This document shows positions 12,388 through 46,067 of a stretch of DNA of 64,000 nucleotides, in pieces (within the stretch, counting starts at the first letter, position 1; the number at the start of each line of letters is the position of its first letter). The translations under genes and the position numbers were made by a program. The DNA comes from Candidatus Omnitrophota bacterium. GTDB taxonomy: Bacteria; Omnitrophota; Gorgyraeia; Duberdicusellales; Duberdicusellaceae. Under the pieces are notes generated by a model, which saw nothing but the letters and a program-made list of their open reading frames with translations, was not told where the DNA came from and searched no databases. Where the stretch lies: the NCBI GenBank assembly GCA_016932855.1, contig JAFGCB010000014.1, positions 6,496-70,495 on the forward strand. Direction: 5' to 3'.

Positions 12388-13786
12388 CGACCACCTCGAA
12401 TTCTTCCAAATAAGGAAGCATCATTACTATTGCCGCTAAAAACCAAAACGGCTCCATAATACGCACGATAATAAAAGTGTTAGCGCCAAAACCTTGAACA
12501 AGCAATCCTGTAAATCCGGCTAAAAAACCTAAAGACAAACCCTTGGCCCAGCTATTCTTTACGCCCTTAAAAATGGCTAAGGAATTTCGAAAAATCAATA
12601 TCAATAACCAGATAAATATCACAAAGCCTATAATCCCCGTTTCTCCCAAGACTCTGGGGTATTGAATATCAACAAGGCCAACCCCGGTAACTCCATAGCC
12701 TAATATTGGACTCTTAAGCCAATACCTGAACACTGTCCTCCAGCCCTCCACCCGGGCAACTGCTGATTGCTCCAAAGGAAGATTTTTTCCGAAGGCGTGA
12801 TAAGTCTTGTAGGGAGTAAAAGTTGATGCGATACGGCCGGTTATTGTATCCACTACCTGGGGAAGAAATACAAACACAATACAAACCACCAAAAGGGCCC
12901 CGGCGATAAGAAATAACCTTTTACTTCTGGATACCAAAATTATAACTGAGTACATTACAATAAAAGCAAGATAGCTGCTTCGGGAAAGAGTAAATATAAA
13001 AGAAGGAATTATGAAAAAACAAACTATGCCTGTAAATATTTTCCATGTTCTTGAACGACTGTATAAAAAGATGCCTATAGATACCGCGAACAATAAAACA
13101 AGATACCCTGCCAGGGTATTAGCCTCTCCGGCTTTTCCCTCAAAGGGAGCAGTTGTCCGGGATAAAACTCCGATTTGTGGCAAGGTGTAAATACAAACTA
13201 TAACACAGGTAAGTAGCAAGGCTATAATAAAGGTCTTAACTTGCTTTTGGTCGCGTATATTATTTGTGACCAAAAAATATAACATAAAATATTGAATGTA
13301 TTTTAGGACATAAAAAAAACTCGTAAGTGGGATGATATAAGCGTTTACTATTCCGACAATAGTCGAAATGATGCATACTGCAATATAACCTAATATAAGC
13401 GAAGTAAGAGAAGTCCGCCGTAAAAGCCCTAAGTCCTTATTCAAGGCCATCTTTGCAAGCCAGCCGAAAAAAACAACTCCTAAAAGGATATCATCCATCC
13501 TGACCACCACTTCTCTAGCTGGGACTTCGGCAAGTTTGAATTCAGGAGAAAGAAGCATGGAGAAAATCAATATAATTAAAGCCATATCAGTGTTTACAAA
13601 AGTGATTATCAAGACAACGAGTGAAAAAATAAGGGAAAAAACAAACAAAGGCAATTTTCCGGAAGCAAGATTAAGTTCGGGCTCAGAGGTTGGTGAATAA
13701 AAAATAAAGAAGATTATGATTATAAAGGCAATTAATAATAAGGCAGCTGAAATTTGCGATATGGCCTGGCCTTTTTTTCTACACAT
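12380..13786 (-). CDS. O-antigen ligase / Wzy_C-domain membrane protein (putative polymerase or O-glycosylation ligase)
   Basis: 468 aa polytopic protein. FTLSRSSYLAFIVMYSVIIL and a large periplasmic loop with GEANTLAGYL are typical of the Wzy_C/O-antigen-ligase family. Overlaps the upstream gene by 8 nt. Confidence 0.6.
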   Translation of the reverse strand: MCRKKGQAISQISAALLLIAFIIIIFFIFYSPTSEPELNLASGKLPLFVFSLIFSLVVLIITFVNTDMALIILIFSMLLSPEFKLAEVPAREVVVRMDDILLGVVFFGWLAKMALNKDLGLLRRTSLTSLILGYIAVCIISTIVGIVNAYIIPLTSFFYVLKYIQYFMLYFLVTNNIRDQKQVKTFIIALLLTCVIVCIYTLPQIGVLSRTTAPFEGKAGEANTLAGYLVLLFAVSIGIFLYSRSRTWKIFTGIVCFFIIPSFIFTLSRSSYLAFIVMYSVIILVSRSKRLFLIAGALLVVCIVFVFLPQVVDTITGRIASTFTPYKTYHAFGKNLPLEQSAVARVEGWRTVFRYWLKSPILGYGVTGVGLVDIQYPRVLGETGIIGFVIFIWLLILIFRNSLAIFKGVKNSWAKGLSLGFLAGFTGLLVQGFGANTFIIVRIMEPFWFLAAIVMMLPYLEEFEVVDV

Positions 13787-13903: not shown

Positions 13904-15814
13904 TTACTTCTCAGACCTGCTCTCGTCATCTCTGGTATAGTAGCCGTATTTTTTATAACGGTAGTAGTAAGGATAGGGCTCTATGGGCTCGGTCTGAGGC
14001 CGAGTATGATTAAGAACTATTCCGGAAATATTGGTATTTACTGAATCTAACTGTGCTTTGCAGCGCAGAAGAGCTTCCCGGGAAACTCTGCCAGTTTCAT
14101 AGCAGACAACGATAGAATCTACTAAATTAGCGATAAGAGAAGCGTCGGTTACCGGAAGGACCGGGGGCGAATCAAAAAATACCACATCAAATTCACTACG
14201 CAGCTGTTCAAGCAAGGAAGAAAACCTGCTCGAGGCTAAAAGTTCCGCCGGATTATGAGGTATAGTCCCGCAAGGAAGAACCCAGATATTCCTAAGCCCC
14301 GAGGGCTTTACCGCCTCATCGAATTCCATATCCCCCAATATAATGTCGGTAATGTTTCTTAAGGCGTCTTTTAAATTATCCAGACCCGACAGAACTTCAC
14401 TTAAGCCCGGCCGAGGCTCTATGCCGAAAGTCTTAGCCAAAGCAGGCCGGCGCATATCCGAAGAAACTAATAAGGTGCGCAGGCCCTCTTGTGCGGTAGC
14501 CAATCCTAAATTTGTCAAAATAGTAGTCTTTCCTTCCTGGGGAGAAGAGCTTGTAATAAGAATTACTTTTTTTGAAGGGCTTATCTTAAGATTAGTCCTT
14601 ATATTTCTGAAAGATTCCGATATAGGCGCAGTAGGCTTGTAATGAACTGCCAGACGGATATATTTCTCCTCCTCTTCGCTTTTGGGAGGAATAAAAAATC
14701 TTCTTTTTATCCTGTCTAAAATATTTCCTTTCGCCCTGGCTCCGGCCTCAATAGAAGGGACAACTCCCAATACCGACAATTTTGTGATATTTTCAACGTC
14801 TTCTATTGTACCTATAGAAGTATCAAGGGTCTCGGTAACAAAAGCTAAGACACTTCCCAAAATCAGGCCCATTATTCCGCCCAAAACCAAAGACAGCTTC
14901 CCCTGAGAGCCTATTGCAACCGGGGGCATGACCGCCGGATTGACCACTGAAACATCGGAAACTTCCTCAGCCTCGGTAATACGGGCCTGCTCCAGCTTTT
15001 CTTTAAGCATGGAATAAAGCTTTCTATTATCTTCCGTTTCCCTTTTTAGGCGGGCGTATTCCAGGGCCTCTTCAGAAAATCCTTTTATCTGATTCTTTAA
15101 ATCTACGACCTGCTCCTTAAGTTGTATCACTGTAGGGTGTTTTTCGGTATATTTCTGCAATAAGGCCGCGAGCTGAAATTCCAAATCTACAATCTTTTCT
15201 TGAATAGGTTCGGCAATGCTTATATTATCTATTTTATCATCGTATTCCTTAAGCCTGTTCTCGGTATCACTTAGTCGCACTTTAAGGGAATTGAGCTGCT
15301 CTTCGACAAATTCACGCACGCTGCGGGCCTGCTTATTCTTGCTAAGAAGGTTCTCCTCAACATATACCCGGGCGACAGCATTTGCTAAATCAACTGCTTC
15401 CTGAGGCTTTTTGGATGTAGCCATAATCTTTATTATATTTGTCCTTCCGATGAGCTCGGTTTCAACCTGCGAGCTTATTCTTGTTACCGCTTCATTAACC
15501 GCATCCAAAGGAGAGTTTTCTTCAATAAAACCAAGATGCAAGGCTACTTTCTTGATAACCGGATAGCCTTTAATGATCTTGGCCTGAGACTCCATAATAT
15601 CGCCGGGATTATAGGAAATCCATTCGGTAAGCAGCCCGGCGATTGTCTTTCTTTCTTCATATTTTACGGTAGTTGTAGACTGATAAAGGGTTATTTGACG
15701 GGAGGAATGAAAGCCGAAGAGTAGGACCGATAAGATAAAAGTAACAATAACGATAAACTTGCGTTTCCGGAAAATCCTTATATAATCGCGCAAATTTAGC
15801 TCGTATTGTACCAT
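13904..15814 (-). CDS. wzc: Polysaccharide co-polymerase / BY-kinase (Wzc-like tyrosine autokinase)
   Basis: N-terminal Wzz domain with TM helix. Walker A SSSPQEGKTT, Walker B VVFFDSPPV. C-terminal tyrosine cluster PYPYYYRYKKYGYYT. Confidence 0.8.
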   Translation of the reverse strand: MVQYELNLRDYIRIFRKRKFIVIVTFILSVLLFGFHSSRQITLYQSTTTVKYEERKTIAGLLTEWISYNPGDIMESQAKIIKGYPVIKKVALHLGFIEENSPLDAVNEAVTRISSQVETELIGRTNIIKIMATSKKPQEAVDLANAVARVYVEENLLSKNKQARSVREFVEEQLNSLKVRLSDTENRLKEYDDKIDNISIAEPIQEKIVDLEFQLAALLQKYTEKHPTVIQLKEQVVDLKNQIKGFSEEALEYARLKRETEDNRKLYSMLKEKLEQARITEAEEVSDVSVVNPAVMPPVAIGSQGKLSLVLGGIMGLILGSVLAFVTETLDTSIGTIEDVENITKLSVLGVVPSIEAGARAKGNILDRIKRRFFIPPKSEEEEKYIRLAVHYKPTAPISESFRNIRTNLKISPSKKVILITSSSPQEGKTTILTNLGLATAQEGLRTLLVSSDMRRPALAKTFGIEPRPGLSEVLSGLDNLKDALRNITDIILGDMEFDEAVKPSGLRNIWVLPCGTIPHNPAELLASSRFSSLLEQLRSEFDVVFFDSPPVLPVTDASLIANLVDSIVVCYETGRVSREALLRCKAQLDSVNTNISGIVLNHTRPQTEPIEPYPYYYRYKKYGYYTRDDESRSEK

Positions 15815-15933: not shown

Positions 15934-16722
15934 ATGAATACAACAATAATAGAAACAAAAGAGATAACTAAACTCTTTTGGTCTCCTCTTTCTCTATCGA
16001 AAATATCAAGGTTAGATCTTAAAAGAACAAAGCCGGTCAAAGCCCTAGATCAAATATCTTTTAAATGCGACAAAGGCTCAACCTTAGTTGTTTTAGGGCC
16101 GAACGGTGCAGGAAAAACCACGCTACTTAAGATAATCTCTACTCTTGTGCTTGCCGACAAAGGCGAGGTTAAGATAGCCGGGTATAAGGTTGGTAAGGAT
16201 GATGAGAAAATAAAGTCGAAAATAGGCTTAGCTAGCGGGGAAGAGCGAAGTTTCTATTGGCGCCTTACCGGAAGACAGAATTTAGAGTTTTTTGCAAGCC
16301 TCTACGGCATGGATAAAAACGAAATTAAATCCCGGCTTGAGATATTATTTAAATTATTTAAGATTGACTACCAGGAAAAACGCTTTGATACCTACTCCAC
16401 TGGTATGAAAAGGCGATTTTCCCTTATAAGGGCCCTTATTCATGATCCGGAAATCTTACTTTTGGACGAACCCACAAAAAGCCTGGATTATAACTGCCGG
16501 CAGGAACTAACCAAGCTTATAAAAGAACTGACAATGAAGGGCAAAACCGTAATCTTGGCCACACATGATATACAAGAAGCCGAGAATTTATCTAGTTTAT
16601 TTATGATTCTTAACAAAGGAAGGCTCTGCGGATTCGGCTCTAAAGAAGAATTAAGTAAAAAGATAGGATTAGGCGCAACGAATCTGGCTAAAGTCTATTT
16701 AACCCTTACCGAGAATGTCTAA
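15934..16722 (+). CDS. ABC transporter ATP-binding protein (ABC-2 type; Wzt/TagH-like, no C-terminal CBM)
   Basis: Walker A LGPNGAGKTT, signature YSTGMKRR, Walker B LLLDEPT. Confidence 0.85.
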   Translation: MNTTIIETKEITKLFWSPLSLSKISRLDLKRTKPVKALDQISFKCDKGSTLVVLGPNGAGKTTLLKIISTLVLADKGEVKIAGYKVGKDDEKIKSKIGLASGEERSFYWRLTGRQNLEFFASLYGMDKNEIKSRLEILFKLFKIDYQEKRFDTYSTGMKRRFSLIRALIHDPEILLLDEPTKSLDYNCRQELTKLIKELTMKGKTVILATHDIQEAENLSSLFMILNKGRLCGFGSKEELSKKIGLGATNLAKVYLTLTENV

Positions 16723-17518
16723 AATAATTTCTCTACTAAAGAAAGATTTTTTAATTGAAACAAGTTACAAATTAGCCTTTTTATTCAATATCTTCGGCGT
16801 CATTAGCAGCCTGCTTATTTATTTCTTTATTGACAAACTTTTCGGCCAAAGAATAAGCCCGCACTTGGAAGAATTCGGAATAAATTATTTTTCTTATGTG
16901 CTTTTAAGCATGGCTTTCTTCAGTTATATCGGCGTAGGCATCGGCTCTTTTTCCTCCCGGATTAGAGCCGAACAAATACAGGGGACGCTGGAATCACTTC
17001 TGGTCACTCCCACCAAAATATCAATAATCCTCTTAAGTATGGGTCTCTGGAACCTCATCTTCGCCACAATCGACGTTTTTATATATATTTCTTTAGGGGT
17101 AATATTATTTAACATAAACTTTACTAATGTAAACCTTATTTCAACGCTCGCAGTATTAATCTTGACTATTATATCCTTTAGCAGCCTAGGCATACTTTCC
17201 GCCAGTTTTATAATGATTTTTAAACGGGGAAATCCTGTAGCCTGGATTATAAATACCCTAGAGGGCCTTTTAGGCGGTGTATATTTTCCGGTTAAGGTTA
17301 TGCCGGCTTTCCTGCAGTTTCTGGCTAGATTCCTACCGATTACCTATGCCATACGGGCAATGCAACTGGCTGTATACAAAGGACATACTGTCTTTGAGCT
17401 TAAAAATGAACTTCTTTTTCTTTTCTTGTTCTCCTGCCTGCTTCTACCTCTAAGCTTTACCTCTTTTAGCTACGCTCTTAAGAAAGCTCGCCTCCAAGGA
17501 AGCCTCCTGCAATACTAG
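16715..17518 (+). CDS. ABC-2 type transporter permease (Wzm-like)
   Basis: 267 aa, 6 TM. Overlaps the ATPase gene by 8 nt. ABC-2 permease topology. Confidence 0.7.
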   Translation: MSKIISLLKKDFLIETSYKLAFLFNIFGVISSLLIYFFIDKLFGQRISPHLEEFGINYFSYVLLSMAFFSYIGVGIGSFSSRIRAEQIQGTLESLLVTPTKISIILLSMGLWNLIFATIDVFIYISLGVILFNINFTNVNLISTLAVLILTIISFSSLGILSASFIMIFKRGNPVAWIINTLEGLLGGVYFPVKVMPAFLQFLARFLPITYAIRAMQLAVYKGHTVFELKNELLFLFLFSCLLLPLSFTSFSYALKKARLQGSLLQY

Positions 17519-17551: not shown

Positions 17552-18694
17552 TTAGGGGGTGAGGAGATTTTTTAAGCGGTGCAGGTAGTGGGTAGGGCGG
17601 ATTCTTGAAGGAGGCAAACCAAGGTTGTGGGCCAAAATAAGGGATGAAGGTAGAAAGCTCCTTTTAACAAAACGCAGTTTAGGAGAAAATCCTTTTTGTA
17701 GAAAAAGAAAAGCTAGCCAGCACATCCTGTAAGAACGCAGCCCTCTCTTGGCCAAATAGGAATAAATAAATTTCTGAAAGCCCGGCTTTAGCATTCCGGT
17801 ATATTTGGAATTAAGACTTTTCAAACCAAGTAATTCTTCCGTAAGAGCGAGGCTAAAATAGACAATCCCAGATATGCCCCACTCTCGGGAAAAATAATCA
17901 ATCCTTTGCCAATCCAGGTTTTCCGCGTAAGAAGATAAAACCATGGCAATATCCGACAATCTCATTAAGTTATCGAAAGAATGGATAAAAGCATGCAGAC
18001 ACAAATAAATTAAAAGATGCTCGGGACATAAAGCAAGAGCATCAACTCCGCCTATTTTAGTAGATTGTACTTTGCTCCAAACACTAAACATATCTATACG
18101 ACTGACTAAATCCTCCAAAGGCCAAGTGGTATTTACAAGGTGCCAGTGAAGATGTAAACAGTATTTAAAGGGCCTTTCTTTTTTGTACATAAGCGTGTTA
18201 AGAGGTAAGATGCGGGAATTTTTAAGAAAATCAAAGTAAGAGTCGGGGGTTATGTAGCCTAAAGAATTTAAAAGAAGGTTAGCCTCTTTAAGATTATCCT
18301 TGGCAATAAGTAAGTCTATATCGCTCATCGGACGTAAGGCTATATTCTTGTAAACATGTTCTGCCAGAAAAACCCCTTTAATAGCAATTGTTTTTATGTT
18401 TTTTTCGGAAAATTTAGCTATTATCTTTTCTGCCTCTTCGAATACAAGAGTATTACTCAAAGAATTAGCATAATACTTCCTCTTAAATTCCTCCCTAACA
18501 CTTAAAGGAACAAGACCGTTTAAATTCTTCAAACCCCGGTAAATAAGAGGATAAACTTTCTCCCTATAAGACTTATTAAGGATATATTGCCAGTCCACAC
18601 TGGAACCGGATAAGATCTGTTCAACCTGCTTTAAATAAGCGGCTCTGGCATTTAAGCCCAGCAAACAAGTTAATAATTCATCTTCTCTGCGCAT
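17552..18694 (-). CDS. Nucleotidyltransferase family protein (PF14907-like)
   Basis: Conserved RPMSDIDLLI (hG[GS]x..DxD-type NTase motif), about 380 aa. This family is commonly clustered with PqqD and HprK-like kinases. Confidence 0.45.
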   Translation of the reverse strand: MRREDELLTCLLGLNARAAYLKQVEQILSGSSVDWQYILNKSYREKVYPLIYRGLKNLNGLVPLSVREEFKRKYYANSLSNTLVFEEAEKIIAKFSEKNIKTIAIKGVFLAEHVYKNIALRPMSDIDLLIAKDNLKEANLLLNSLGYITPDSYFDFLKNSRILPLNTLMYKKERPFKYCLHLHWHLVNTTWPLEDLVSRIDMFSVWSKVQSTKIGGVDALALCPEHLLIYLCLHAFIHSFDNLMRLSDIAMVLSSYAENLDWQRIDYFSREWGISGIVYFSLALTEELLGLKSLNSKYTGMLKPGFQKFIYSYLAKRGLRSYRMCWLAFLFLQKGFSPKLRFVKRSFLPSSLILAHNLGLPPSRIRPTHYLHRLKNLLTP

Positions 18695-18699: not shown

Positions 18700-19590
18700 T
18701 TATAGGACTTTACTCATGATAATTCGCTCTTTTTTAGTCTTTCTATCGCCTCTTCTTAACTCCCGGTCAATCGCAGGAACAGATACTTGATTAAACCCGA
18801 GCTTGCTGTATAAATTAACTGCCGGCTTATTATCCTTAAATACAAAGAGCCTCACTTGAGTAGCCCCTTCTTCTTTTAAAAACCTTAAGGCCGTATACGT
18901 AAGCTTGTAAGCAATGCCTAAACGCCGGTAAAACCAATGCACCTGCGTAGAATAAATCCACCATCCCCTATAAGCCTCATTATCGGTGAAATTATTAAGG
19001 TTTAAACCGGCAATAACCTTATCCTCTCTCTTGGCCAGGATACGTTTATCCAAACCATCTAAAGATTCAATCTCATAGTTTACTTTTACCCTAATAAGCG
19101 TTCTTACTATATAACGATAAACTTTAAAACCCTGCACCCAACGTAGCAACATACCAGCTATTTTACGCATAGCTTCTACAGCAAAATTAATCCTGGCGTA
19201 GAATAAAGCTATGGCCTTAAACAAGGGGCTATCGGGAAATATTCTCCTGTCCCCTCTTTGGATAAACTTAACCTTACCTAAAAGATCACCTGAAGCGACT
19301 TCTTCAGGCTCTATATTAGAATCCCCCCTGGCTATTAAAATAAGCTTTCCTTCGCGAAGACGCCTCTTTATAAACCTGTGGGCGGCCAGGCGTTTATCCG
19401 GAGTCTTATAAAATATCACCTCGCCCAAACGTATTTTATCGGCCGCGGCCCTTTCAACAGTAAGGATATCCCCGTCCAAGATAGACGGACACATACTTTT
19501 CCCCCTGGCCTTAAAGCGAAGAAGGCCTGCCTTATTAATAATATCCCGGCTTAACTTAAGAAATTCTATTTTGTCCAGCTTCACGGGCAA
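18700..19590 (-). CDS. Fusion protein: S24/S26 (LexA/signal-peptidase-like) serine peptidase domain + GNAT acetyltransferase domain
   Basis: N-terminal RGKSMCPSILDGDILTV (Ser of the Ser/Lys dyad) ... HRFIKRR ... GDLLGKV. C-terminal GATQVRLFVFKDNKPAVNLYSKLGFNQV (GNAT motif A/B). Confidence 0.45.
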   Translation of the reverse strand: MPVKLDKIEFLKLSRDIINKAGLLRFKARGKSMCPSILDGDILTVERAAADKIRLGEVIFYKTPDKRLAAHRFIKRRLREGKLILIARGDSNIEPEEVASGDLLGKVKFIQRGDRRIFPDSPLFKAIALFYARINFAVEAMRKIAGMLLRWVQGFKVYRYIVRTLIRVKVNYEIESLDGLDKRILAKREDKVIAGLNLNNFTDNEAYRGWWIYSTQVHWFYRRLGIAYKLTYTALRFLKEEGATQVRLFVFKDNKPAVNLYSKLGFNQVSVPAIDRELRRGDRKTKKERIIMSKVL

Positions 19591-20432
19591 CTATCTATAA
19601 AATCTAAAGAGCTTTGATCGGGAAGAAAACCGAAATCATGGCAGGAAACAGCGCCGGCTAAGCAGCCACAAAAATCAAGAGTAAAATCCGTTCCTTGCTT
19701 ATCCCAAAAAGGAGGAAAAGAGCAGACAAAAAGTCGCGAAACAGCTTCAATCTCTTTTAAGGCTTTAAGGCTATTTTCAGCGGCGTGTCTTAAGAAAAAT
19801 ATTTTCTCTAAAGGAACCTTACCGGAAGAACAAGCCTTTACATCTCCATACCAGGGCGTTCCGTACATCCAGAATCCCTGCTTGTCTTTACGGACAATAA
19901 TCCTATCGTCATTTAAGATATCCACCCCTTCTTTATCCTTCCATAACTTAGCGATGGTACTTTTGCCGGCTCCAGAGCTACCAACAAACAAAAAACCCTT
20001 ATTTTTATAACTGACCCCGCAGGAATGAAGAATTATACCCTTTCCCTTGGAAAGCAGATTTATCATAAGTATTTCCCCTAAAGGATATTCCAAAGGGAAA
20101 TTATAGCCGTCATTACTGTCCCGGTCATCCAGGTAAATACTGCCGGAAGTAAAGACCTTATCAAAAACAGCCGTAGCCGAAGTAGTCCTTAATATCCGCA
20201 AATCACCCTGCTTTGATATGCTCCATGTCCCGGAGACATCAAAAAAAGCCTCCTCTTGAATCTGATTATCATAAAGCCTTTCAATAATCTTAAGATTTAT
20301 ATCAGCTTTTTCTTTAGTTACGAACCGACGATAGGAATTATTATACAAACGGCAGGAATTAATACTTGCCGGATTAAGAGATATTACTATATCTCCCAAA
20401 GAAAATCTTAATTCATTTCCTGCCTTAGCCAT
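19581..20432 (-). CDS. HPr kinase-related P-loop kinase (HprK C-terminal domain-like)
   Basis: Walker A FLFVGSSGAGKSTIAKLW in an HprK-like context. 283 aa. Overlaps the downstream gene by 10 nt. Confidence 0.5.
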   Translation of the reverse strand: MAKAGNELRFSLGDIVISLNPASINSCRLYNNSYRRFVTKEKADINLKIIERLYDNQIQEEAFFDVSGTWSISKQGDLRILRTTSATAVFDKVFTSGSIYLDDRDSNDGYNFPLEYPLGEILMINLLSKGKGIILHSCGVSYKNKGFLFVGSSGAGKSTIAKLWKDKEGVDILNDDRIIVRKDKQGFWMYGTPWYGDVKACSSGKVPLEKIFFLRHAAENSLKALKEIEAVSRLFVCSFPPFWDKQGTDFTLDFCGCLAGAVSCHDFGFLPDQSSLDFIDSCP

Positions 20433-20488
20433 ATTATCTACCCAAAAAGAAATAGTTTCATTCCGAAGGTAAGAAATTTATACGGCTG

Positions 20489-20653
20489 TTAACTTCCGCT
20501 GTCCTTAGAGCACTTACCAGGATTAACAGGCGGACAAGACTCGCTTTTTCCGTTTGAGCCGTCGCTTCTTTTGCATCCTGTAAGCAAGGCTTCCTGGGGA
20601 ACTAAGTCAACTTGGCTTAGTGCCGGTTTTTGATAGGTTTTTTTTGTCATCAT
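20489..20653 (-). CDS. Unannotated 54-aa peptide; candidate RiPP precursor: MMTKKTYQKPALSQVDLVPQEALLTGCKRSDGSNGKSESCPPVNPGKCSKDSGS
   Basis: Hand-translated. Start ATGATG preceded by AAGGAGG 10 nt upstream. Lies between the rSAM/SPASM and kinase genes on the same strand. Core rich in Cys/Ser/Gly/Pro. Missing from the ORF track because it is under 60 aa. Confidence 0.5.
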   Translation of the reverse strand: MMTKKTYQKPALSQVDLVPQEALLTGCKRSDGSNGKSESCPPVNPGKCSKDSGS

Positions 20654-20697
20654 ACTCTGTATACCTCCTTAAAAATAATCCGCTTTTAAGCGTTCTT

Positions 20698-21777
20698 TTA
20701 ATAAACTGCCGGCTTAATCAAGCCTAAAGCCTCAGCCCTTAGATGAGCGACCTTGCAAAGATACTCGACCGGCTTTTGGGGATCGGAATTTTCAAGCTGG
20801 CCCCAGCCCGGACACTGTCCGCAAAGAGAGATTAGTTCACAGCTGTTACATCTGTAATCACTGCTGCACTTCCGGGATAAGACTTCAGGGACTCTATCAT
20901 ACCAGACTTCCTTAAAGCTGTTTTTTAGAAGACTAAAACTCTGGGCCCGGGACATCTCGCAGACAGTCAAATACCCGTAAGGGTCGATATTAAAGGAATT
21001 TACTCCCGCTCCGCAGATATAGAGATTATCCGAGCCTGTGCCACCCCAGAACTGCTCACAGAACTGTCTTAACTCCTGGGCCCTCTTGTAAGAAGCAAAA
21101 TCAAGCTCAACTACCTGACTGGGCAGAACTCTAAACTTACAGGGCTCTTTACAGCCGTCAAGTCTGGGGTTAATTCCTGTATCTAATCTAAAACTTAAGC
21201 CTAAATCTTGAGCAAACTTCTCCATGCTCCGGACTTCATCAAAGTTTAAATTCATAACCATAGTCTTTAAGCTAAGGGGTAATTTACGCTCTCTTAAAAT
21301 ATCAATTCCTTTAAGGCACTCTTTGAAAGAGCCGGGCACTCCGGTAATCTTCTCGTGGGTTTCCTTAGATGCACCGTAGATACTTACTTCTATGCGGAAA
21401 GGCGGATACTCTCTTAAATAATCGGCGATATAATCGGTAACCAGCGTAGCGTTAGTAAACAAAGTAATAATCATGCCTTTATTTTTTGCATAGCCATAGA
21501 TATCCAAAAAGTCTTTCCTTAAAAGCGGCTCTCCGCCGGTTATAAGAAGCCAAAGACAGCCGGAAGCGGCAATCTCGTCCAGAAGACGGCTAATCTCCTT
21601 AAAGCTTAGCTCCTTTTCTTTAATATCATGAAGGCAGTAGCAATGCACACAACCCATGTTGCAGCGGAAAGTAAGCTCTATGGTCCCGCAAATAGGAGTA
21701 CGGTCCTTCTTTACTTTGGAATGAATCTTTTGGCTAAACTTACTGTAAGGTATTTTTACCAGGGGACGGCAATCCAT
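20698..21777 (-). CDS. Radical SAM / SPASM-domain peptide-modifying enzyme
   Basis: CNMGCVHC (Cx3Cx2C). Cys-rich C-terminus CGAGVNS...CNSCELISLCGQCPGW is typical of SPASM auxiliary clusters. Confidence 0.8.
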   Translation of the reverse strand: MDCRPLVKIPYSKFSQKIHSKVKKDRTPICGTIELTFRCNMGCVHCYCLHDIKEKELSFKEISRLLDEIAASGCLWLLITGGEPLLRKDFLDIYGYAKNKGMIITLFTNATLVTDYIADYLREYPPFRIEVSIYGASKETHEKITGVPGSFKECLKGIDILRERKLPLSLKTMVMNLNFDEVRSMEKFAQDLGLSFRLDTGINPRLDGCKEPCKFRVLPSQVVELDFASYKRAQELRQFCEQFWGGTGSDNLYICGAGVNSFNIDPYGYLTVCEMSRAQSFSLLKNSFKEVWYDRVPEVLSRKCSSDYRCNSCELISLCGQCPGWGQLENSDPQKPVEYLCKVAHLRAEALGLIKPAVY

Positions 21778-21779: not shown

Positions 21780-22073
21780 TTAAACTTCCTCTATCCCTTT
21801 TATCCGTAATAAATTATCTAAGAATTCCTTAAGGTCCTGCTCTGCTTCTTTAACAGATACGTCAAATTCCTCAGCAAGCTTGTCCCTGATGCGGGTTAAG
21901 CTTATTTCCGGGTCAATTAATTCCCAAATCCTGGAAGCGACTTCATTTAAGGTATAAATACTCTGCAGATCACCTACGTTATTACTAATAGGCACCAAGA
22001 TAGACTCCTCAGCGATTTTTCTAAAGACAATATCGGGATTTTTCTTATAGCGTTTATCCAAGACTTGCATATT
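21780..22073 (-). CDS. PqqD-family peptide chaperone (RiPP recognition element)
   Basis: IYTLNEVASRIWELIDPEISLTRIRDKLAEEFDVSVKEAEQDLKEFLDNLL matches the PqqD fold consensus. The ORF-track start at 22124 overlaps the upstream gene; the internal Met at 22073 is more likely. Confidence 0.7.
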   Translation of the reverse strand, partial: NMQVLDKRYKKNPDIVFRKIAEESILVPISNNVGDLQSIYTLNEVASRIWELIDPEISLTRIRDKLAEEFDVSVKEAEQDLKEFLDNLLRIKGIEEV

Positions 22074-22077
22074 TTTA

Positions 22078-22950
22078 TTACCAGACTTTAGCCCCGCGGG
22101 AAAAGCCTTGGGCTTTGGTAGCATTATCTAAGATAGGTCCGAATAAGGTGCTTAGAAAATAATTTACATCAGCGATAAACTTCTTAGGGACAAATACAAT
22201 ATTTCCGGATGCCAAAGTAATGTTCTGCTGACTTGAAGGCTTATGGATAGCTTTATTTAAATCAAACCTTTCGGCCTTGGGATTATCAAAGCCGTCTTTT
22301 ACCACGATAACGCTTGAAGCAACCGAATGACTGGTAAAGCCTCCGGCTAAAGCTATAACTTCCAAAAGATTAGTTGCCCCGGAAATAGAATATACACCGG
22401 GATAAACCACTTCACCCAAGACGATTACTTTACCTAAGCCTATCTTGCGCAAAGAGATAGAAACATCAGGAAAACGAATGTATTCCTTTAACTTTGCGGT
22501 TATCTTTTCATCAAGCTGACCCACGCTAAGACCTGAAGCCTGGACTTCGTCTACTAAGGGTAAGGAAATCTTTCCGTCAGGCCTTACAATTGTCTCCTGA
22601 TCAAGGTCAGGGTTCTCCCAAACCGATATAAAAAGGGTATCTCCCTGACCGATAATATAGGCTCCGGATTGAGCATCGGCAGCAGTAACTGGCTGAGCTT
22701 CCTCTAATCCTAAAGGCTCTTCAACCCTGGCGACACGGGAAAGCCTTTCTTTATCTTTAAGAAATTGAAGGGATCTTTTGAACTCTCTTTCCGCTTCCTT
22801 ATAAAGACCGTGCTCGTAATAAATCGTCCCCACCCGGTAATGCTGGCGGGCCTTCTGCTCAAGGTCCTGGGAATAAAGAAGGCTACCGGCTGCTAAAAAT
22901 AAAATAAAACTTACGCTTAAAAAAGATAATCTCATGCCATTTGCAGACAT
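22078..22950 (-). CDS. wza: Polysaccharide export protein, Wza/OPX family (Poly_export + SLBB)
   Basis: Signal peptide. YIIGQGDTLFISVWENPDL..VRPDGKISLPLVDEVQASGLSVGQLDEKI is the Poly_export signature. SLBB-like C-terminus. Confidence 0.7.
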   Translation of the reverse strand: MSANGMRLSFLSVSFILFLAAGSLLYSQDLEQKARQHYRVGTIYYEHGLYKEAEREFKRSLQFLKDKERLSRVARVEEPLGLEEAQPVTAADAQSGAYIIGQGDTLFISVWENPDLDQETIVRPDGKISLPLVDEVQASGLSVGQLDEKITAKLKEYIRFPDVSISLRKIGLGKVIVLGEVVYPGVYSISGATNLLEVIALAGGFTSHSVASSVIVVKDGFDNPKAERFDLNKAIHKPSSQQNITLASGNIVFVPKKFIADVNYFLSTLFGPILDNATKAQGFSRGAKVW

Positions 22951-22991: not shown

Positions 22992-24410
22992 CTATTCAAG
23001 TTCCTGCCCGGAAGCCTGGCCGCTCTCGATAGACTGAAGAATCACCTCGACTTTGCTGCGCAGCTCATCAGCGTCCTCTTCCTTAGATAAGTCATCCTGC
23101 AGGCTTCCTCCCAAATCCATCTGACCTATCTTTTCTTTGGTAAGCGGCTCTGCCTCTAAAGTTACGTCTTCGCCCAAAAGATTGGATACCTCCCGCAGGC
23201 GTTCCTGAAGGGCGGTATTCAAACTCGTAGTTTGAGAAAGTCTTTCCAATATCTTTCTCTGATTCTCTTCGCTGCTTTTAAAAGCCTCTTCTAATTTTTC
23301 GGATTTCTCCTTTAGATAAGAAATCTGGTCTTTAATTCCGGTGATCTGCTTCTCCTTTTCGTCCAGCTCCAAGTCTTTTCGATAAAGGACATCGGAAAGC
23401 TCTTTAAGCTGGTCCCGTAATCTGTTATAAAGAGAAGTTACTGTTCTTAATCTTTCGTTCTGCAGCCTTACTTTCTCCTGCAATGCTATGGATTCGGTGC
23501 TACCGGCTATCTGGTATTCTTTCAGTTTTTCCTCAAGATCATAGACGGCTTTGCTCTTTTGGTCTAAATCAGAGTTTAGCTTAACTATCTGGTCCTGAAA
23601 ACTTTTATTGCGAAACTGAAGTTCCTCTATATCCCTTTTATATCCTTCGATCTCTACTATCAAATCGTCTTTGTTTTTATTATACGACGAGAGCTTGTCC
23701 TCAAAAGCAAGCTTCTCTTTGTCCTTTTCCTCCAATTGCCTGGTAAGCTCTTCTATGCGTCTCTGCAAAAATTGAGAGGGCTTTTCGCCGGCCAACTCCT
23801 TCTGGTATCTTTCTATGTTTTTCTTAAGAAAGTCTCTTTCTTTTATGCTTTGGGCATACCTATCTTTAAGCTCTCCCAACTCCCTGATAAGACTCTGGGT
23901 CTGTCTGTCTTTTTCTTTTATCTGCATCTTTAAACGGTTAAACTGTTCTTGCTCAAAAGCGATGTCCTGTCTGCTTTCTAAATTTAATATTTTTACCTTA
24001 GCCTCCTGCAACTGGCTTGAAAAAGTATCCAATTCTTTGATATTGGCCTGCATTTGGTTTTTCAAGGCAAAATTTTCACCTCGCAAGACATCGGATTGAG
24101 CCTTAATACTGGTCAACTCAGAGTTTAAGCTGTTAATCATATCCTGAGCGGCTGAAAGCGCCCTTTTTAAACGCTGGGGATAACTCAATTCATCTACCTT
24201 ATCGCCTAAATCATCAAGTTCGGCTTGTTTGTCTACTAAAGAAGCTGTAAGCTGCTCAATCTTTTCCTCATAAGAGCTAACTTTCTCAAGAAGTGCGGCT
24301 TTTTCTCTTTGAAGAGAGCCTAAACTAAATCCGGAAAAAATAATAAAATAACCTGCTAACAAGGCTATGCTTGCGGCTAAAACCAAAAGGATAATATTTT
24401 TTTTAAACAT
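22992..24410 (-). CDS. Membrane-anchored coiled-coil protein (possible PCP/chain-length or scaffold protein)
   Basis: N-terminal TM helix followed by about 440 aa of heptad-rich coiled coil. Confidence 0.4.
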   Translation of the reverse strand: MFKKNIILLVLAASIALLAGYFIIFSGFSLGSLQREKAALLEKVSSYEEKIEQLTASLVDKQAELDDLGDKVDELSYPQRLKRALSAAQDMINSLNSELTSIKAQSDVLRGENFALKNQMQANIKELDTFSSQLQEAKVKILNLESRQDIAFEQEQFNRLKMQIKEKDRQTQSLIRELGELKDRYAQSIKERDFLKKNIERYQKELAGEKPSQFLQRRIEELTRQLEEKDKEKLAFEDKLSSYNKNKDDLIVEIEGYKRDIEELQFRNKSFQDQIVKLNSDLDQKSKAVYDLEEKLKEYQIAGSTESIALQEKVRLQNERLRTVTSLYNRLRDQLKELSDVLYRKDLELDEKEKQITGIKDQISYLKEKSEKLEEAFKSSEENQRKILERLSQTTSLNTALQERLREVSNLLGEDVTLEAEPLTKEKIGQMDLGGSLQDDLSKEEDADELRSKVEVILQSIESGQASGQELE

Positions 24411-24420: not shown

Positions 24421-25476
24421 TTATGCGATATAAAACCCCGGGCTTCTGCTTAAATCTATTTCTTTGGGTTTTTCCAGGCGTCTTCCCTGAGAATCAATCA
24501 GAACTTTGACTAAAGGCGAGGTCGGCAAAGCGGGATTACGCCTTACGACAAAAGCTAACTCCTGGGTGTTTAAGGTAACCGGGGTTCCTCTGGGATAGAG
24601 GCCGACCTTCTCCAACAAAGCCTTTATAACTTTTTTACTGAAACTTTCTTTATTATTCAGAATTATTTTTATACACTCTTTGGCTGTATGTGCCGGCCGA
24701 TAAGGCCGTTTATGAGTAAGAGCCTCGTATACGTCAGCTAAGCCGACGATTCTGGCAAAATCATTTATCTGCTCGGCCTTAAGGCCACGGGGGTAACCTA
24801 GGCCGTTAAAACGTTCATGCTCCTGCTCCAGGGCAGCCAGTATAGAAACATCAATATCGAGCCTTATCTTTTTCAAGGCTTCCGAACCCTGTAGAGGGTG
24901 ATCTTTTATCTTTCGAAAATCAGATATGCTTAAACGCTGAGGCAGGCTGGCAATAGGTAAATAACGGCGCATACCTATGTCGTGAAGAAAGCCCGCCGCA
25001 CCAAGCTTTATTAGATCATCCTTTGATAAACTAAACCAATGTCCGATTTCTAAAGAAAGAATACAGACATTTACCAAATTCAGAGAAAGATAGTGCCCTG
25101 AAAAAGAATCATCGGAGAATATAAAATCAAAAAGCTCCTGGGTATCCTTTTCGATAAAATCCGAAAGCTCCCGTACGCAAGAAAAAATGTCACTGATGTT
25201 TATCTTCGGTGCCTCGCCTTTAAATACCTCCTCGGCTAGATTTAAAGCCCGGGAATATAAACTCTTAGCCTTGACGGAGCCTTTTTCATCAGAAAGGCTC
25301 TTTGGAATATTTAAATCTTTTTTAATCTTTGAAGAATCTAAGCTTTTTGCGCTCGATGTATCGCTCTGCCGGAAAGAAGGGAAATTAAGTTTATGAAGAG
25401 AAATTCTATCATCAACAGGTTCTTTGGAAGATTTTCTTTCATCTTCTCCTTTAGGAATCTTAGAAAAATCAACCAT
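24421..25476 (-). CDS. HD-GYP domain protein (c-di-GMP phosphodiesterase family; possibly a degenerate metal site)
   Basis: FLHDIGM ... EQEHERFNGLGYPRGLKAEQINDFARIVGLADVYEALTHKRPYR. The HHExxDGxGYP consensus is present with one His replaced. Confidence 0.6.
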   Translation of the reverse strand: MVDFSKIPKGEDERKSSKEPVDDRISLHKLNFPSFRQSDTSSAKSLDSSKIKKDLNIPKSLSDEKGSVKAKSLYSRALNLAEEVFKGEAPKINISDIFSCVRELSDFIEKDTQELFDFIFSDDSFSGHYLSLNLVNVCILSLEIGHWFSLSKDDLIKLGAAGFLHDIGMRRYLPIASLPQRLSISDFRKIKDHPLQGSEALKKIRLDIDVSILAALEQEHERFNGLGYPRGLKAEQINDFARIVGLADVYEALTHKRPYRPAHTAKECIKIILNNKESFSKKVIKALLEKVGLYPRGTPVTLNTQELAFVVRRNPALPTSPLVKVLIDSQGRRLEKPKEIDLSRSPGFYIA

Positions 25477-26209
25477 CTCCTTTTTCGCCTACTTGCTTGC
25501 AAAAACACTCCTCTAAATCTTTTTCAGCTTGAATTATTATTTCCTTATCGATTATGTCCAAATGCTTAATAAAACCGGTAAGAAGCGCCAGGTCGCAAAT
25601 ATTATTGATTATCCGGGGTATGCCGCCGGATAGCTCGTAAATCTGGCTATAGGCAGGCTCGGTAAATATGGCCCGATCAAGACCTGCGACATTCAAACGA
25701 TGAGCGATATATCTGGCTGTCTGTATGCTGTCAAAGGGATGAAGGTAATAACGGATAGAAAACCTCTGCTTAAGCTGAGGCGAACGGGATATATTCTCCA
25801 AAATAGAAGATTGACCCAAAAGAAGCAAGGTAAACAAGAAAGAATCATCGCGCTGAATATTCAAAAGAAGTCTTAATTCCTCGAGAAAATCCTCTTGGGC
25901 TATGCTCTGGGCTTCATCAACAACAAGCGCAGTATAAAAACCGCTGTCAAAATTATCTTGAAGACTCCTACTTATGGCGTGAAGTAAATCTACTTTATCC
26001 ATGGATGAGAATCCATCAGAGCCGGACAACTGATATTGTATCTCTTTTAATAAATCAACCGGGCTTAAGCGGGGATTGGATATGACCACGAATCTGAACT
26101 GATTCTGGCCGCACTCCCTTATAAGAGCTTTGCTTAAAAGGGTCTTTCCCATGCCGTATTCTCCGGTCAAGAAAAAAGCGGGCTTATGCTCCCAAACCGC
26201 ATAACTCAT
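25469..26209 (-). CDS. ExeA/GspA/MshM-like AAA ATPase
   Basis: P-loop GEYGMGKT, VVDEAQ box, C-terminal GGIPRIINNICDLAL. Resembles the secretin-associated ATPases of T2SS/MSHA and PEP-CTERM loci. Confidence 0.6.
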   Translation of the reverse strand: MSYAVWEHKPAFFLTGEYGMGKTLLSKALIRECGQNQFRFVVISNPRLSPVDLLKEIQYQLSGSDGFSSMDKVDLLHAISRSLQDNFDSGFYTALVVDEAQSIAQEDFLEELRLLLNIQRDDSFLFTLLLLGQSSILENISRSPQLKQRFSIRYYLHPFDSIQTARYIAHRLNVAGLDRAIFTEPAYSQIYELSGGIPRIINNICDLALLTGFIKHLDIIDKEIIIQAEKDLEECFCKQVGEKGDG

Positions 26210-27040: not shown

Positions 27041-27985
27041 TCACTTAATCGGTGTTTCAGCTTCCCAGGCCTGCCAAGTAAGAATGTATTTTTTTACCCA
27101 ATCCACATCCTTATCCTCTTTGCTGGCAAGCCTTAAATATTTACGGAAATAATCAATCGCCTTATTTCTATCTACCAGATATTCAGCGTAAATATAGCCT
27201 AAATTAAAATAGGCGTAGACATCTTCGGGATTAAGCCTAAGAGCCTTTTCAAACTCGGCAATCGCTCGTTTATATTGACCCTCACCGGTGTAAAAAACGC
27301 CCAGATTATAATGCATAAGGGCTGTCTCTTTGATGAGGACTTTGTTTTCCCGGGCGATCTCGGCAAATTCCTTAGGAAGCTTGCTCAACTTCTTCTCTAA
27401 TTCTTTATTAGCGCTAAGGGCTTGGTTATACTTTTTCTTAAGCTCTGAATGCTGCCTTCGGTAAAGCTTGCTCTCGGCTTTTACCGATATCTTATCGCCC
27501 TCTAACTTTTCAATTTCTTTCTCCAGACCGCTGATTTTGCGCTCCAGAAGCAGGTTATCCTTTTTAGCCTGGTCAAGCTCCCTCTTGATATCATCTACTA
27601 TTTTATATTCAACTTCCATTTTTTCAATATAATTCTTAAGTACCTCCATCTGGCTTTTAAGCTCTGAATTTTGGGCCGCAAGTTCGTCTATATACTCCTT
27701 TAAATCGGTTATTTCGGCATTCAGAGCAATCTTGTCTTGCTCAAGCTGATTATTCTTGCCCTGGACAATCCTGGCTTCATCCTGCATTTGGCGTATCTCA
27801 GTTTTATATTGAAGAAGGTTTTTGCTCTGGGCTAAAATATTGTCCCGGTCTTTAAGAAGACGCTCGTACTCCTTCTTTAACTTCTCCAGCTCAACTCTTA
27901 AGGTTGCTGCGTCTTGAGCATAGACAAGGCTAGACCCCAAAATACAGGCCACTATGAAAACTGATAAATATATGCTGTTTCTCAT
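27041..27985 (-). CDS. Signal/TM + coiled-coil + C-terminal TPR protein (secretin partner; MshN-like?)
   Basis: N-terminal hydrophobic segment, about 180 aa coiled coil, TPR repeats LGVFYTGEGQYKRAIAEFEKALRLNPEDVYAYFNLGYIY. Paralog of 29889-31019. Confidence 0.55.
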   Translation of the reverse strand: MRNSIYLSVFIVACILGSSLVYAQDAATLRVELEKLKKEYERLLKDRDNILAQSKNLLQYKTEIRQMQDEARIVQGKNNQLEQDKIALNAEITDLKEYIDELAAQNSELKSQMEVLKNYIEKMEVEYKIVDDIKRELDQAKKDNLLLERKISGLEKEIEKLEGDKISVKAESKLYRRQHSELKKKYNQALSANKELEKKLSKLPKEFAEIARENKVLIKETALMHYNLGVFYTGEGQYKRAIAEFEKALRLNPEDVYAYFNLGYIYAEYLVDRNKAIDYFRKYLRLASKEDKDVDWVKKYILTWQAWEAETPIK

Positions 27986-27991
27986 AAGTAA

Positions 27992-29779: not shown

Positions 29780-29888
29780 TCAACCCCGTACCTTTGAATT
29801 ATTCATCGCAGATACAGCAAAGGTGCGGGGTAAATCCGGACATAGACTTATGTTCGTCGCTTTGCTCCTCCATAAGTCTCGCCCTCAT

Positions 29889-31019: not shown

Positions 31020-31022
31020 AGC

Positions 31023-43012: not shown

Positions 43013-43137
43013 AATTATTAAAGATTCGCGGTGCGTTTATGATATATAGTCATACTGTAGCCATGCTATTGTCATACATAGTCATACAATTGTTTAACTA
43101 ATGTATGACTTTCTATTATTAAGGTAACCTGTAACGG

Positions 43138-44754: not shown

Positions 44755-44883
44755 AATTAATCTTTTAGATTAAATACAACAACTGGATCCTAGATCCTCG
44801 CTTTAAAACATAAGCACCTAGCACCTGGCACCTATGGTCTTTAAGAGCGCTTATCGAGGATCGAAGAAAAGTCTCAGGTTGTT

Positions 44884-46065: not shown

Positions 46066-46067
46066 TG

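Follow-up and report, generated by a model that had tools for sequence, protein, structure and literature searches.

A conserved short gene between radical SAM and kinase genes in an Omnitrophota genome as a probable RiPP precursor gene within polysaccharide export loci

Results

A short gene between a radical SAM enzyme and a kinase

A 64,000-nucleotide stretch of contig JAFGCB010000014.1 (positions 6,496 to 70,495 of the forward strand; assembly GCA_016932855.1, Candidatus Omnitrophota bacterium), referred to here as the window, was analyzed around a minus-strand open reading frame (ORF) of 54 codons. This ORF had been proposed, from the sequence alone, as a candidate precursor peptide, that is, the substrate of a pathway making peptides that are ribosomally synthesized and then post-translationally modified (RiPPs). 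On re-reading window positions 20400-20760, the ORF and its reported translation, MMTKKTYQKPALSQVDLVPQEALLTGCKRSDGSNGKSESCPPVNPGKCSKDSGS (54 aa), matched exactly. The start codon is ATG 20653-20651, with a second ATG directly after it, and the stop codon is TAA 20491-20489. The AAGGAGG motif was found upstream where it had been reported, and the counts of three Cys and six Ser in the C-terminal 28 residues were correct. The gene occupies most of a 265-nt same-strand gap between the stop codon of a radical S-adenosylmethionine (rSAM)/SPASM enzyme gene (TAA 20700-20698) and the ATG of a predicted kinase gene at 20432, in agreement with the location given in the original prediction. The label "unannotated" was right for the ORF track used at that time, but not for NCBI, where the ORF is entered as hypothetical protein JW734_01415 of a Candidatus Omnitrophica metagenome-assembled genome (MAG), on a contig of 73.7 kb.

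The neighboring genes encode a PqqD-family protein, the rSAM/SPASM enzyme, an HprK-like kinase, an S24 protease fused to a GNAT domain and an NTP_transf_5 nucleotidyltransferase-fold protein (NTase), and together with the short gene they are called the cassette below (Table 1). Scans of the peptide with Pfam and NCBIfam returned no family. When a family profile built without the window sequence was run against the six-frame ORFs of the window, the ORF scored 58.3 bits (E 1.2e-16) and the runner-up only E 2.3, so that no further precursor copy was found in the 64 kb by this search. A promoter and terminator scan gave nothing beyond background, and folding of the spacer RNA between the peptide and kinase genes revealed no unusual structure (z -0.97) and no sign of an attenuator.

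Table 1. Features of the peptide cassette and its surroundings (positions in the window)
Feature	Position	Strand	Evidence or remark
Wzy_C protein	12380-13786	-	Same gene after the cassette in L085, L086
Wzc-type chain-length/tyrosine-kinase protein	13904-15814	-	Same gene after the cassette in L085, L086
ABC-2 transporter pair (ATPase 15934-16722, permease 16715-17518)	15934..17518	+ (convergent with cassette)	PF00005, PF01061
NTP_transf_5 nucleotidyltransferase-fold protein (PsmN/LppN family)	17552..18694	-	PF14907, E 1e-52; D125-x-D127 motif
S24 archaeal-type signal-peptidase-like protease fused to GNAT acetyltransferase	18700..19590	-	TIGR02228, E 2.6e-13; GNAT PF00583, 2.6e-13
HprK/PEPCK-fold (ScmC-type) peptide kinase, predicted	19581..20432	-	HprK_rel_B TIGR04355, 1.7e-9; ScmC TIGR04249, 1.6e-5; weak PEPCK match
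Predicted precursor peptide gene	20489..20653	-	54 codons + TAA; leave-one-out family profile and same slot in relatives
Predicted core, residues 27-54 (CKRSDGSNGKSESCPPVNPGKCSKDSGS)	20492..20575	-	Cys27, Cys40, Cys48 invariant in the alignment; Lys28, Ser54 at least 90% conserved
Predicted leader, residues 1-26 (MMTKKTYQKPALSQVDLVPQEALLTG)	20576..20653	-	Conserved block Y-x-K-P-x-[IVL]-x-x-V-x-L-x-x-E-E-A-V-L-x-x; putative leader end
YxxP motif (Tyr7-Gln-Lys-Pro10)	20624..20635	-	Predicted contact for the recognition protein
Shine-Dalgarno sequence AAGGAGG	20664..20670	-	10 nt before the ATG of the peptide gene
Radical SAM/SPASM maturase	20698..21777	-	PF04055, E 1.6e-24
PqqD-family RiPP recognition protein	21780..22124	-	PF05402, E 3.5e-14
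Wza-type polysaccharide export protein	22078..22950	-	PF02563, 2.4e-23; recurs beside the cassette
Coiled-coil protein	22992-24410	-	Between the HD_5 and Wza-type genes
HD_5 (HD-GYP-like) protein	24421-25476	-	Conserved upstream pair with AAA_22
AAA_22 ATPase	25469-26209	-	Conserved upstream pair with HD_5

The short gene recurs at the same slot in many lineages

Related loci were gathered by means of the rSAM gene alone, with one genome per species among 185,579 species genomes; 576 loci were obtained, and the best 80 of these 576 were fetched. The rSAM protein of the window has thousands of relatives at 50-64% identity. With the window proteins as tblastn queries, nearly all of the loci that were long enough showed PqqD, rSAM, [small ORF], kinase, S24 and NTase in succession, and the 54-aa peptide alone matched the spacer between the rSAM and kinase genes in most of the fetched loci. 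By listing the spacer ORFs and scanning them for the shared motifs, a family member (an ORF of 47-73 aa) was found between the rSAM/SPASM and HprK-like kinase genes in 70 of the 80 loci, most of the remainder being contigs cut near the rSAM gene. With the peptide of the window, the set comprised 71 sequences.

The taxon labels of the 80 loci covered more than 15 names at phylum level, including Omnitrophota, Desulfobacterota/'Deltaproteobacteria', Aminicenantes, Acidobacteriota, Chloroflexota and Nitrospirota, and additionally WOR-3, KSB1, Planctomycetia, two lineages of the candidate phyla radiation (CPR) and two archaeal MAGs. Eubacteriales or Clostridia labels were carried by three loci, and the hosts were mostly non-Bacillota MAGs.

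The family can be summarized by the pattern M-(basic)-Y-x-K-P-x-[IVL]-x-x-V-x-L-x-x-E-E-A-V-L-x-[A/G]-C-K-(11-18)-C-(3-9)-C-(3-5)-G-S-stop. Across the 16 comparable pairs, whose members have the same length and 60% identity or more, the ratio of non-synonymous to synonymous changes per site (pN/pS) was between 0.27 and 0.70, and below 1 in every pair. A Shine-Dalgarno-like motif was located 3-13 nt upstream of the ORF in 66 of the 71 cases, with AGGAGG in 36. A word-based protein search with the single peptide returned the self-match only, and the relatives surfaced through synteny and then through the profile. The family profile, run against 5.8 billion proteins, detected 59 members, all of them unnamed or 'hypothetical' and none with a Pfam domain.

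The original prediction had named a lack of conservation in syntenic loci as the outcome that would speak against the gene. Since a homologue is carried by 70 of the 80 loci, the ORF is, on this comparative evidence, a real gene under purifying selection, and the homologous ORFs in the same slot, with a conserved leader and a variable core, bear out the proposal of a candidate precursor. A conserved leader followed by a variable core is the usual pattern of RiPP precursors, and tandem precursor copies are common among them. Such extra copies were found in two loci: two full copies in tandem in L050 (4011-4523), and three or four in L043 (7104-7947), some truncated after the leader and one broken by a run of N.

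No other substrate candidate was noticed at the slot between the rSAM and kinase genes or in three loci with gene calls, where the remaining ORFs were locus-specific or toxin-antitoxin insertions. In a single deltaproteobacterial lineage (L081-L084), almost every two neighboring cassette genes are separated by inserted toxin-antitoxin pairs (PIN, ParE and two HepT/nucleotidyltransferase pairs), with the gene order kept (examples in L081: 4124-5988, 7425-7909, 9224-9869 and 10490-11330).

The predicted leader and its putative recognition protein

The division between leader and core, which had been placed near residue 25, agrees with the family alignment, where conservation stops at Cys27-Lys28. 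The YxxP motif is present in 71 of 71 peptides, and the distance from its Tyr to the first Cys is exactly 20 residues in 66 of 68.

A PqqD-family gene was found in all 43 loci with at least 4.5 kb of upstream sequence. A profile of these proteins matched the lasso-peptide recognition proteins TbiB1 (E 3.5e-12) and PbaB1 (2e-8) and LppB (PDB 9x8z, chain 9x8z_B; 8.7e-8), and its match to PqqD itself was weaker (3e-5 to 7e-5). LppB belongs to the Linear Polyphosphorylated Peptides (LPPs) of Bacillota (Popov et al., Nat Commun 2026, PMC13381572), and the recognition proteins of LPPs, like the B1 proteins of lasso peptides, bind [Y/W]xxPx[L/V/I] leader motifs (PMC13381572). Because proteins of the TbiB1/PbaB1/LppB type bind exactly this motif, YxxPx[IVL] is the predicted recognition contact of the family. 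Comparison of the peptide profile with PDB chains gave chance matches only (E at least 0.43).

Before the first Cys, position -3 is Leu in 62 of 68 peptides, and position -1 is Ala, Gly, Asn, Ser or Thr in 60 of 68 (Ala or Gly in 44). LppS, the protease of LPPs, requires a hydrophobic residue at -3 and Thr at -1 (PMC13381572). The cut was placed at L-x-[A/G]|C-K because the residues at -3 and -1 fit a requirement of this kind; whether the leader would be cleaved there, before Cys27, is judged an even call. The same junction, L-x-[A/G]-C, found at residues 24-27 (window 20573-20584) and family-wide, resembles a lipoprotein lipobox, in a leader without a hydrophobic core. It is read here as a probable -3/-1 rule for the signal-peptidase-like protease.

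The predicted core and the radical SAM enzyme

Outside its conserved positions the core varies, with Gly, Ser, Thr, Ala and Pro abundant between the Cys residues, and the mean net charge of the family cores is +2.4. Exactly three Cys were counted in 66 of the 71 peptides, and Cys-Lys opens the core in 63 of 68. The last residue is Ser in 61 of the 71 peptides and Thr in six, with a Gly-Ser end in 49, and this C-terminal Ser is the sole conserved Ser of the family. The earlier idea that the Ser residues are phospho-acceptors is thus favored for the C-terminal position (Ser or Thr in 67 of 71), but not for the other five of the six Ser, which are not conserved.

The rSAM protein has the CX3CX2C motif in the form CNMGCVHC (Cys39/43/46), together with seven C-terminal Cys (255, 273, 310, 313, 319, 322 and 341) of SPASM-like spacing that are invariant among relatives. 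Among solved structures, its closest relative is the thioether synthase SkfB (E 1.8e-19), with PqqE next, and its best full-length NCBIfam match is MftC, at 120.7 bits over residues 27-319 versus a cut-off of 265. The three conserved Cys of the peptide are consistent with being the targets of this enzyme.

A variant peptide follows the rSAM gene in two CPR loci (Portnoybacteria, Saccharibacteria), L049:1731-2791 and L052:7002-8034, with Cys-Ser replacing Cys-Lys and a core of the form SPGEKMTSPW(Y/N)PCLYTCNKDR(S/K). A C39-like cysteine peptidase (Pfam 1e-9) takes the place of the kinase and S24 genes in these loci; there is no kinase within 5 kb in L052, and the sequence of L049 ends about 1.2 kb past the rSAM gene. 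The window also encodes a second radical SAM protein (36518-37816, 432 aa, domain at residues 193-358), beside which no obvious small ORF partner was seen.

The kinase, the nucleotidyltransferase-fold protein and the protease

The frequencies of downstream genes were determined in the 47 loci that extend 5.5 kb or more past the rSAM gene on its downstream side. The kinase gene was present in 46 of them. Its homologues carry the precomputed Pfam family PF27840 (ScmC), and in one of them a match to Hpr_kinase_C was obtained below the cut-off (E 2.8e-5, 24.1 bits versus 33.3). His136, the P-loop GxSGAGK157T with Lys157, and Asp175 are invariant in the family, and Asp176 is nearly so. A fold search was needed because the kinase sequence gave generic P-loop matches only against the PDB. 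With the AlphaFold2 model (pLDDT, the predicted local distance difference test, 92.6), Foldseek returned phosphoenolpyruvate (PEP) carboxykinases as the best matches (E 4e-6), followed by HPr kinase/phosphorylases (5e-4).

These four residue types, His-Lys-Asp-Asp, form a motif that is essential in lasso-peptide kinases. The target that PadeK, ThcoK, SyanK and PsmK phosphorylate is the conserved Ser at the C-terminus of the linear precursor. The C-terminal Ser of the present family, likewise conserved, matches this specificity, and its phosphorylation by the HprK-like kinase is rather likely. In L052, the single locus with ample downstream sequence but no kinase, the peptide ends in Lys and not in Ser. 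One kinase homologue of 652 aa, P0125, was considered as an rSAM-kinase fusion and rejected as such: it joins an N-terminal SAM-dependent methyltransferase domain to a kinase domain at residues 379-649, a fusion that hints at more tailoring variants in the kinase family.

The NTase was found in 24 of the 47 loci within the flank examined. PsmN, from a family of uncharacterized nucleotidyltransferases, is required for the addition of one or two hexoses to phospho-Ser, and the D134A/D136A mutant of PsmN has no activity. The 'putative NTP transferase' of LPPs is grouped under NTP_transf_5 as well (PMC13381572).

The S24-GNAT ORF starts at a TTG and overlaps the kinase stop codon by 10 nt. Its S24 domain scored 50.1 bits against TIGR02228, its best model, for which the curated cut-off is 51.85. 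It contains GKS32M, AH71R and GD90S and has no membrane segment. The spacing between Ser32 and His71, 39 residues, equals that between Ser29 and His68 of LppS (residue numbers from PMC13381572), whose catalytic residues are Ser29, His68 and Asp93 and which cuts only when the recognition protein presents the leader (PMC13381572). The S24 part was found in 37 of the 47 loci and the GNAT part in eight.

The polysaccharide locus and the rest of the window

A convergent ABC-2 pair directly after the NTase gene was observed in L001, L003, L012, L018, L022, L024, L025, L031, L039, L042, L081, L085 and L086, and ABC-2 proteins were present in 11-14 of the 47 loci. Beyond the Wzc-type and Wzy_C genes of the window there are a PMT-type transferase, a flippase, GT4 glycosyltransferases and methyltransferases. 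The HD_5/AAA_22 pair is also found upstream of PqqD in L081, L085 and L086. On three independent metagenome contigs with gene calls and precomputed Pfam domains, the genes had the same extended layout, in this order: AAA_22, HD_5, PqqD, Radical_SAM, the peptide, ScmC (PF27840), Peptidase_S24, NTP_transf_5, convergent ABC2_membrane and ABC_tran, and Poly_export. L085 and L086 have a second AAA_22 ahead of Poly_export, with a Wzz/GNVR kinase and Wzy_C after it. As judged from these domain assignments, the peptide cassette is repeatedly embedded in a polysaccharide locus of the Wza/Wzc/Wzy type.

Upstream of the AAA_22 and HD_5 genes of the window, a two-gene unit is duplicated in tandem (27041-32828), consisting of a secretin (27992-29779; 31023-32828) and a coiled-coil/TPR protein (27041-27985; 29889-31019). 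Further upstream are two ORFs (32825-34982) without a Pfam match at E 1e-8 or lower, and a second AAA_22 ATPase (34979-35836). A trehalose/maltose-type cluster at 38687-49054, unrelated to the peptide cassette, comprises a TreT-like glycosyltransferase, DUF5752, two GH65 phosphorylases, a trehalose-phosphatase/HAD fusion, a GT4 protein and a HAD hydrolase. For an ORF of 1219 aa at 58452-62111, no Pfam family was found at E 1e-3 or lower.

Discussion

Relation to known peptide systems

The closest likeness is to the LPPs. Their clusters, which are often located inside capsular polysaccharide loci, hold genes for a protease similar to signal peptidase I, a discrete recognition protein, an HprK-like kinase, an NTP_transf_5 protein and an MsbA-like exporter; the precursor leader is YxxPxVLxHQxIxFETxxS (PMC13381572). 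Polyphosphorylation of core Ser3 and LppS-dependent removal of the leader have been shown for them (PMC13381572). Four of the five core enzyme families, the protease only tentatively, are shared with the cassette of the window, matched by the same models: the PqqD-type recognition protein (through LppB), the HprK-like kinase (TIGR04249/TIGR04355), the NTP_transf_5 protein, and probably the S24 domain, which falls slightly short of the curated TIGR02228 cut-off and has its Ser and His 39 residues apart as in LppS. The leader opening YxxPx[VIL], some ABC exporter and the polysaccharide-locus setting are also held in common.

The two also differ. The rest of the leader is HQxIxFET in LPPs and xxVxLxxEEAVL(xxCK) in the present family. 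In each of the 80 loci, all retrieved by way of the rSAM/SPASM gene, this gene immediately precedes the peptide, whereas there is no mention of radical SAM in the text and supplements of the LPP paper (PMC13381572). LPP cores are described as linear, with no conserved Cys reported, in contrast to the three invariant Cys found here. The C-terminal Gly-Ser corresponds to the acceptor position of paeninodin, while the phosphorylation site of LPPs is core Ser3, and the exporter is MsbA-like in LPPs and an ABC-2 pair in the window. Finally, LPPs and paeninodins are stated to be restricted to Bacillota (PMC13381572), whereas the present family is found under many other phylum-level labels.

Lasso peptides of the paeninodin/pseudomycoidin type share the YxxP-type leader with a discrete B1 recognition protein, the ABC exporter, the HprK-like kinase with His-Lys-Asp-Asp, a C-terminal Ser that is 'extremely conserved' in the lasso precursors, and an NTP-transferase (there PsmN, which places hexose onto phospho-Ser). 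Unlike in those precursors, no Asp or Glu is conserved at core positions 7-9, and an rSAM/SPASM enzyme and an S24 protease replace the cyclase and the B2 protease. A lasso system was rejected: neither an Asn-synthase-like macrolactam synthetase nor a B2 transglutaminase-like protease appeared in Pfam scans of the window ORFs of at least 100 aa, a few of which were unscanned or had no match.

With the sactipeptides and ranthipeptides (SkfB, AlbA, PapB, CteB) the cassette has in common an rSAM/SPASM maturase with the full set of auxiliary-cluster Cys, a recognition domain and a Cys-bearing core, but the recognition protein, which is of the lasso type, stands alone rather than being fused to the rSAM enzyme. 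Scores of the window rSAM protein against the curated maturase models were far below the cut-offs (PapB 68/340, SkfB 64/300, AlbA 59/850 and StsB 82/625 bits). No sactipeptide or ranthipeptide class is known to us in which a kinase, an NTase and a signal-peptidase-like protease accompany the rSAM enzyme.

The SynChlorMet (ScmC/D/E/F), HprK-related kinase A/B and GeoRSP cassettes likewise combine a PqqD homologue, an rSAM/SPASM enzyme and an HprK-like/ScmC protein. The curated equivalog models of these systems also matched the window far below their cut-offs (ScmC 24/125, ScmD 21/100, ScmE 87/400, ScmF 64/400, HprK_rel_B 37/200 and GeoRSP rSAM 85/400), and SynChlorMet has two rSAM enzymes, ScmE and ScmF, where the cassette has one. 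To our knowledge, the curators of SynChlorMet reported no identified precursor, and our literature searches found no publication on the SynChlorMet, HprK-related or GeoRSP cassettes.

In mycofactocin biosynthesis, MftC acts on a conserved C-terminal dipeptide and the product is later glycosylated. The shared elements are a short precursor with a conserved C-terminus, a PqqD-like protein (MftB) and an rSAM/SPASM enzyme (MftC). The differences are the C-terminus itself, Gly-Ser here and Gly-Val-Tyr in MftA; the score to MftC, which falls well short of its cut-off; the absence of MftD, MftE and MftF genes, with a kinase, an S24 protease and an NTase instead; and a polysaccharide rather than a redox context.

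None of the cassette proteins reaches a curated NCBIfam equivalog cut-off. No published description of an rSAM-containing variant was found in literature searches of incomplete coverage, so that an earlier mention is possible. We regard the cassette as an rSAM-bearing sister of the LPPs and the phosphorylated lasso peptides, mostly outside Bacillota.

A proposed pathway and its alternatives

The ORF is very probably a RiPP precursor and the substrate of the neighboring cassette, whose enzymes most likely cross-link, phosphorylate, glycosylate and trim the peptide. In the proposed route, the PqqD-family protein, encoded two genes upstream, would first bind the Tyr7-x-x-Pro10 leader in the manner of lasso B1 proteins and LppB. 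The bound peptide would then be handed to the rSAM/SPASM enzyme for modification of Cys27, Cys40 and Cys48, most likely to thioethers. With three Cys of the substrate invariant, thioether cross-linking is the simplest assumption, and this particular assignment is made tentatively. Thirdly, the HprK-like kinase would phosphorylate the C-terminal Ser54, and fourthly the NTP_transf_5 protein would add to the phosphate, for example a hexose, as PsmN does. The soluble Ser/His S24 protease would next remove the leader, most likely at L-x-[A/G]|C-K, to leave a 28-residue core starting with Cys-Lys. The fused GNAT domain may acetylate this core in the genome of the window, acetylation being a lineage-specific extra, since GNAT accompanies so few of the loci. 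In the last step the convergent ABC-2 transporter would export the product.

The cross-linking step is where another explanation competes. The peptide would still be a RiPP precursor, but the rSAM enzyme would make no thioether: it would instead carry out an MftC-like C-terminal decarboxylation/cross-linking, an epimerization or some other change at a backbone carbon, with the Cys serving as disulfides, as metal ligands or remaining free. The best full-length match is indeed to MftC, an enzyme of a C-terminal dipeptide, yet at a score far under the cut-off, and the best solved relative is the thioether synthase SkfB. The C-terminal Gly-Ser is conserved as well as the Cys, but its Ser is already accounted for by the kinase. 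No conserved acceptor residue accompanies the Cys, a point in favor of this explanation. On the other side, the CPR variants retain both the rSAM gene and the three Cys, in L052 without a kinase and without a C-terminal Ser, which links the rSAM enzyme with the Cys and not with the C-terminus. An enzyme of this other kind is considered the less likely case.

It is far less probable that the ORF encodes a small unmodified protein, a Cys-based metal or redox binder or a regulator of the polysaccharide locus, merely co-transcribed with enzymes that act on some other substrate. Three invariant Cys could bind metal, the locus does hold regulators (HD_5, AAA_22), and for the related SynChlorMet cassette no identified precursor is known to have been reported. 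However, the conserved half of the peptide holds exactly the YxxPx[IVL] motif bound by the family of recognition proteins encoded two genes upstream, the sequence divides into a leader that is conserved and a core that varies, and position and co-occurrence with rSAM, PqqD and kinase genes are maintained under more than 15 phylum-level labels, with no other substrate candidate noticed at the slot or in the three loci for which genes had been called.

The L-x-[A/G]-C sequence from -3 to +1 around Cys27 (Leu in 62 and Ala/Gly in 44 of the 68 peptides) and a protease of the signal peptidase I type could also be taken to indicate a secreted, lipoprotein-like peptide, with a lipobox and an S24 protease removing a secretion signal. 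This is highly improbable: the N-terminal region is charged (Asp16, Glu21 and the conserved Glu-Glu) and reaches a maximum hydropathy over 11 residues of 0.93, lipoproteins are cut by signal peptidase II and not by an S24/S26 enzyme, the S24 protein lacks a membrane segment, and LppS is a proven cytoplasmic leader peptidase dependent on the recognition protein (PMC13381572). A spurious ORF in an untranslated intergenic region or kinase mRNA leader, as its 54 codons and lack of a database family might suggest, has a negligible chance in view of the amino-acid conservation and the start and stop placement kept in 70 loci, the pN/pS values, the strong Shine-Dalgarno motif, the leave-one-out profile match and the ordinary folding of the downstream intergenic RNA. 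The lipoprotein and spurious-ORF explanations were both rejected on this evidence.

Several points weigh against the assignment as a RiPP precursor modified in the proposed way. Its basis is comparative throughout (position, leader/core architecture, purifying selection, and the match between peptide features and enzyme families), and the source is an uncultured MAG. Among the family peptides no conserved acceptor residue occurs at a constant distance from any of the Cys, and the best full-length NCBIfam match, MftC, is a decarboxylase/cross-linker and not a thioether synthase. Four of the 71 peptides have no C-terminal Ser or Thr, and six end in Thr, which LppK did not accept (PMC13381572); moreover, the phosphorylated Ser of LPPs is core residue 3 and not the C-terminus (PMC13381572). 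An NTase was detected within 6 kb in no more than about half of the loci, and LppN showed no activity in tests (PMC13381572). The cleavage site is drawn from the residue pattern only, and an alternative cut after Glu-Glu-Ala, which gives the LPP spacing of 16 from Tyr to site, may apply. The ABC-2 transporter could serve the polysaccharide pathway instead of the peptide.

Significance of the cassette

The position of the cassette inside an exopolysaccharide locus suggests a role tied to the cell envelope or to biofilm. A more speculative extension, which we hold to be improbable, is that the mature peptide is a working part of the exopolysaccharide machinery and not an antibiotic or a signal. 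A thioether-stapled peptide, phosphorylated at the C-terminal Ser and then phosphoglycosylated by the NTP_transf_5 protein, would act as the primer, acceptor or anchor (a 'peptide carrier' replacing or standing beside the lipid carrier) for the polysaccharide handled by Wzy_C, Wzc and Wza. If true, this would explain why the cassette lies inside Wza/Wzc/Wzy loci under such distant labels as Omnitrophota, Planctomycetia, Deltaproteobacteria and others, and also why LPPs and paeninodins are found in capsule loci of Bacilli.

The assignment as a RiPP precursor would provide the substrate of a widespread, uncharacterized rSAM and kinase cassette, with at least 70 loci carrying the peptide and 576 rSAM relatives. 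The invariant features, YxxP, the three Cys and the C-terminal Gly-Ser, make this assignment directly testable. Because the cassette is linked to the LPP and phosphorylated-lasso families, the module of recognition protein, kinase, NTase and signal peptidase would not be confined to Bacillota, and it would be combined with a lasso cyclase, with a radical SAM enzyme or with no scaffold-forming enzyme, which makes at least three options. The role of LPPs and paeninodins was left open by the authors who described the former (PMC13381572), and so was a connection between such peptides and capsule or biofilm assembly (PMC13381572); the repeated embedding of the present cassette in polysaccharide export loci raises the possibility of this same link for RiPPs in lineages mostly outside Bacillota.

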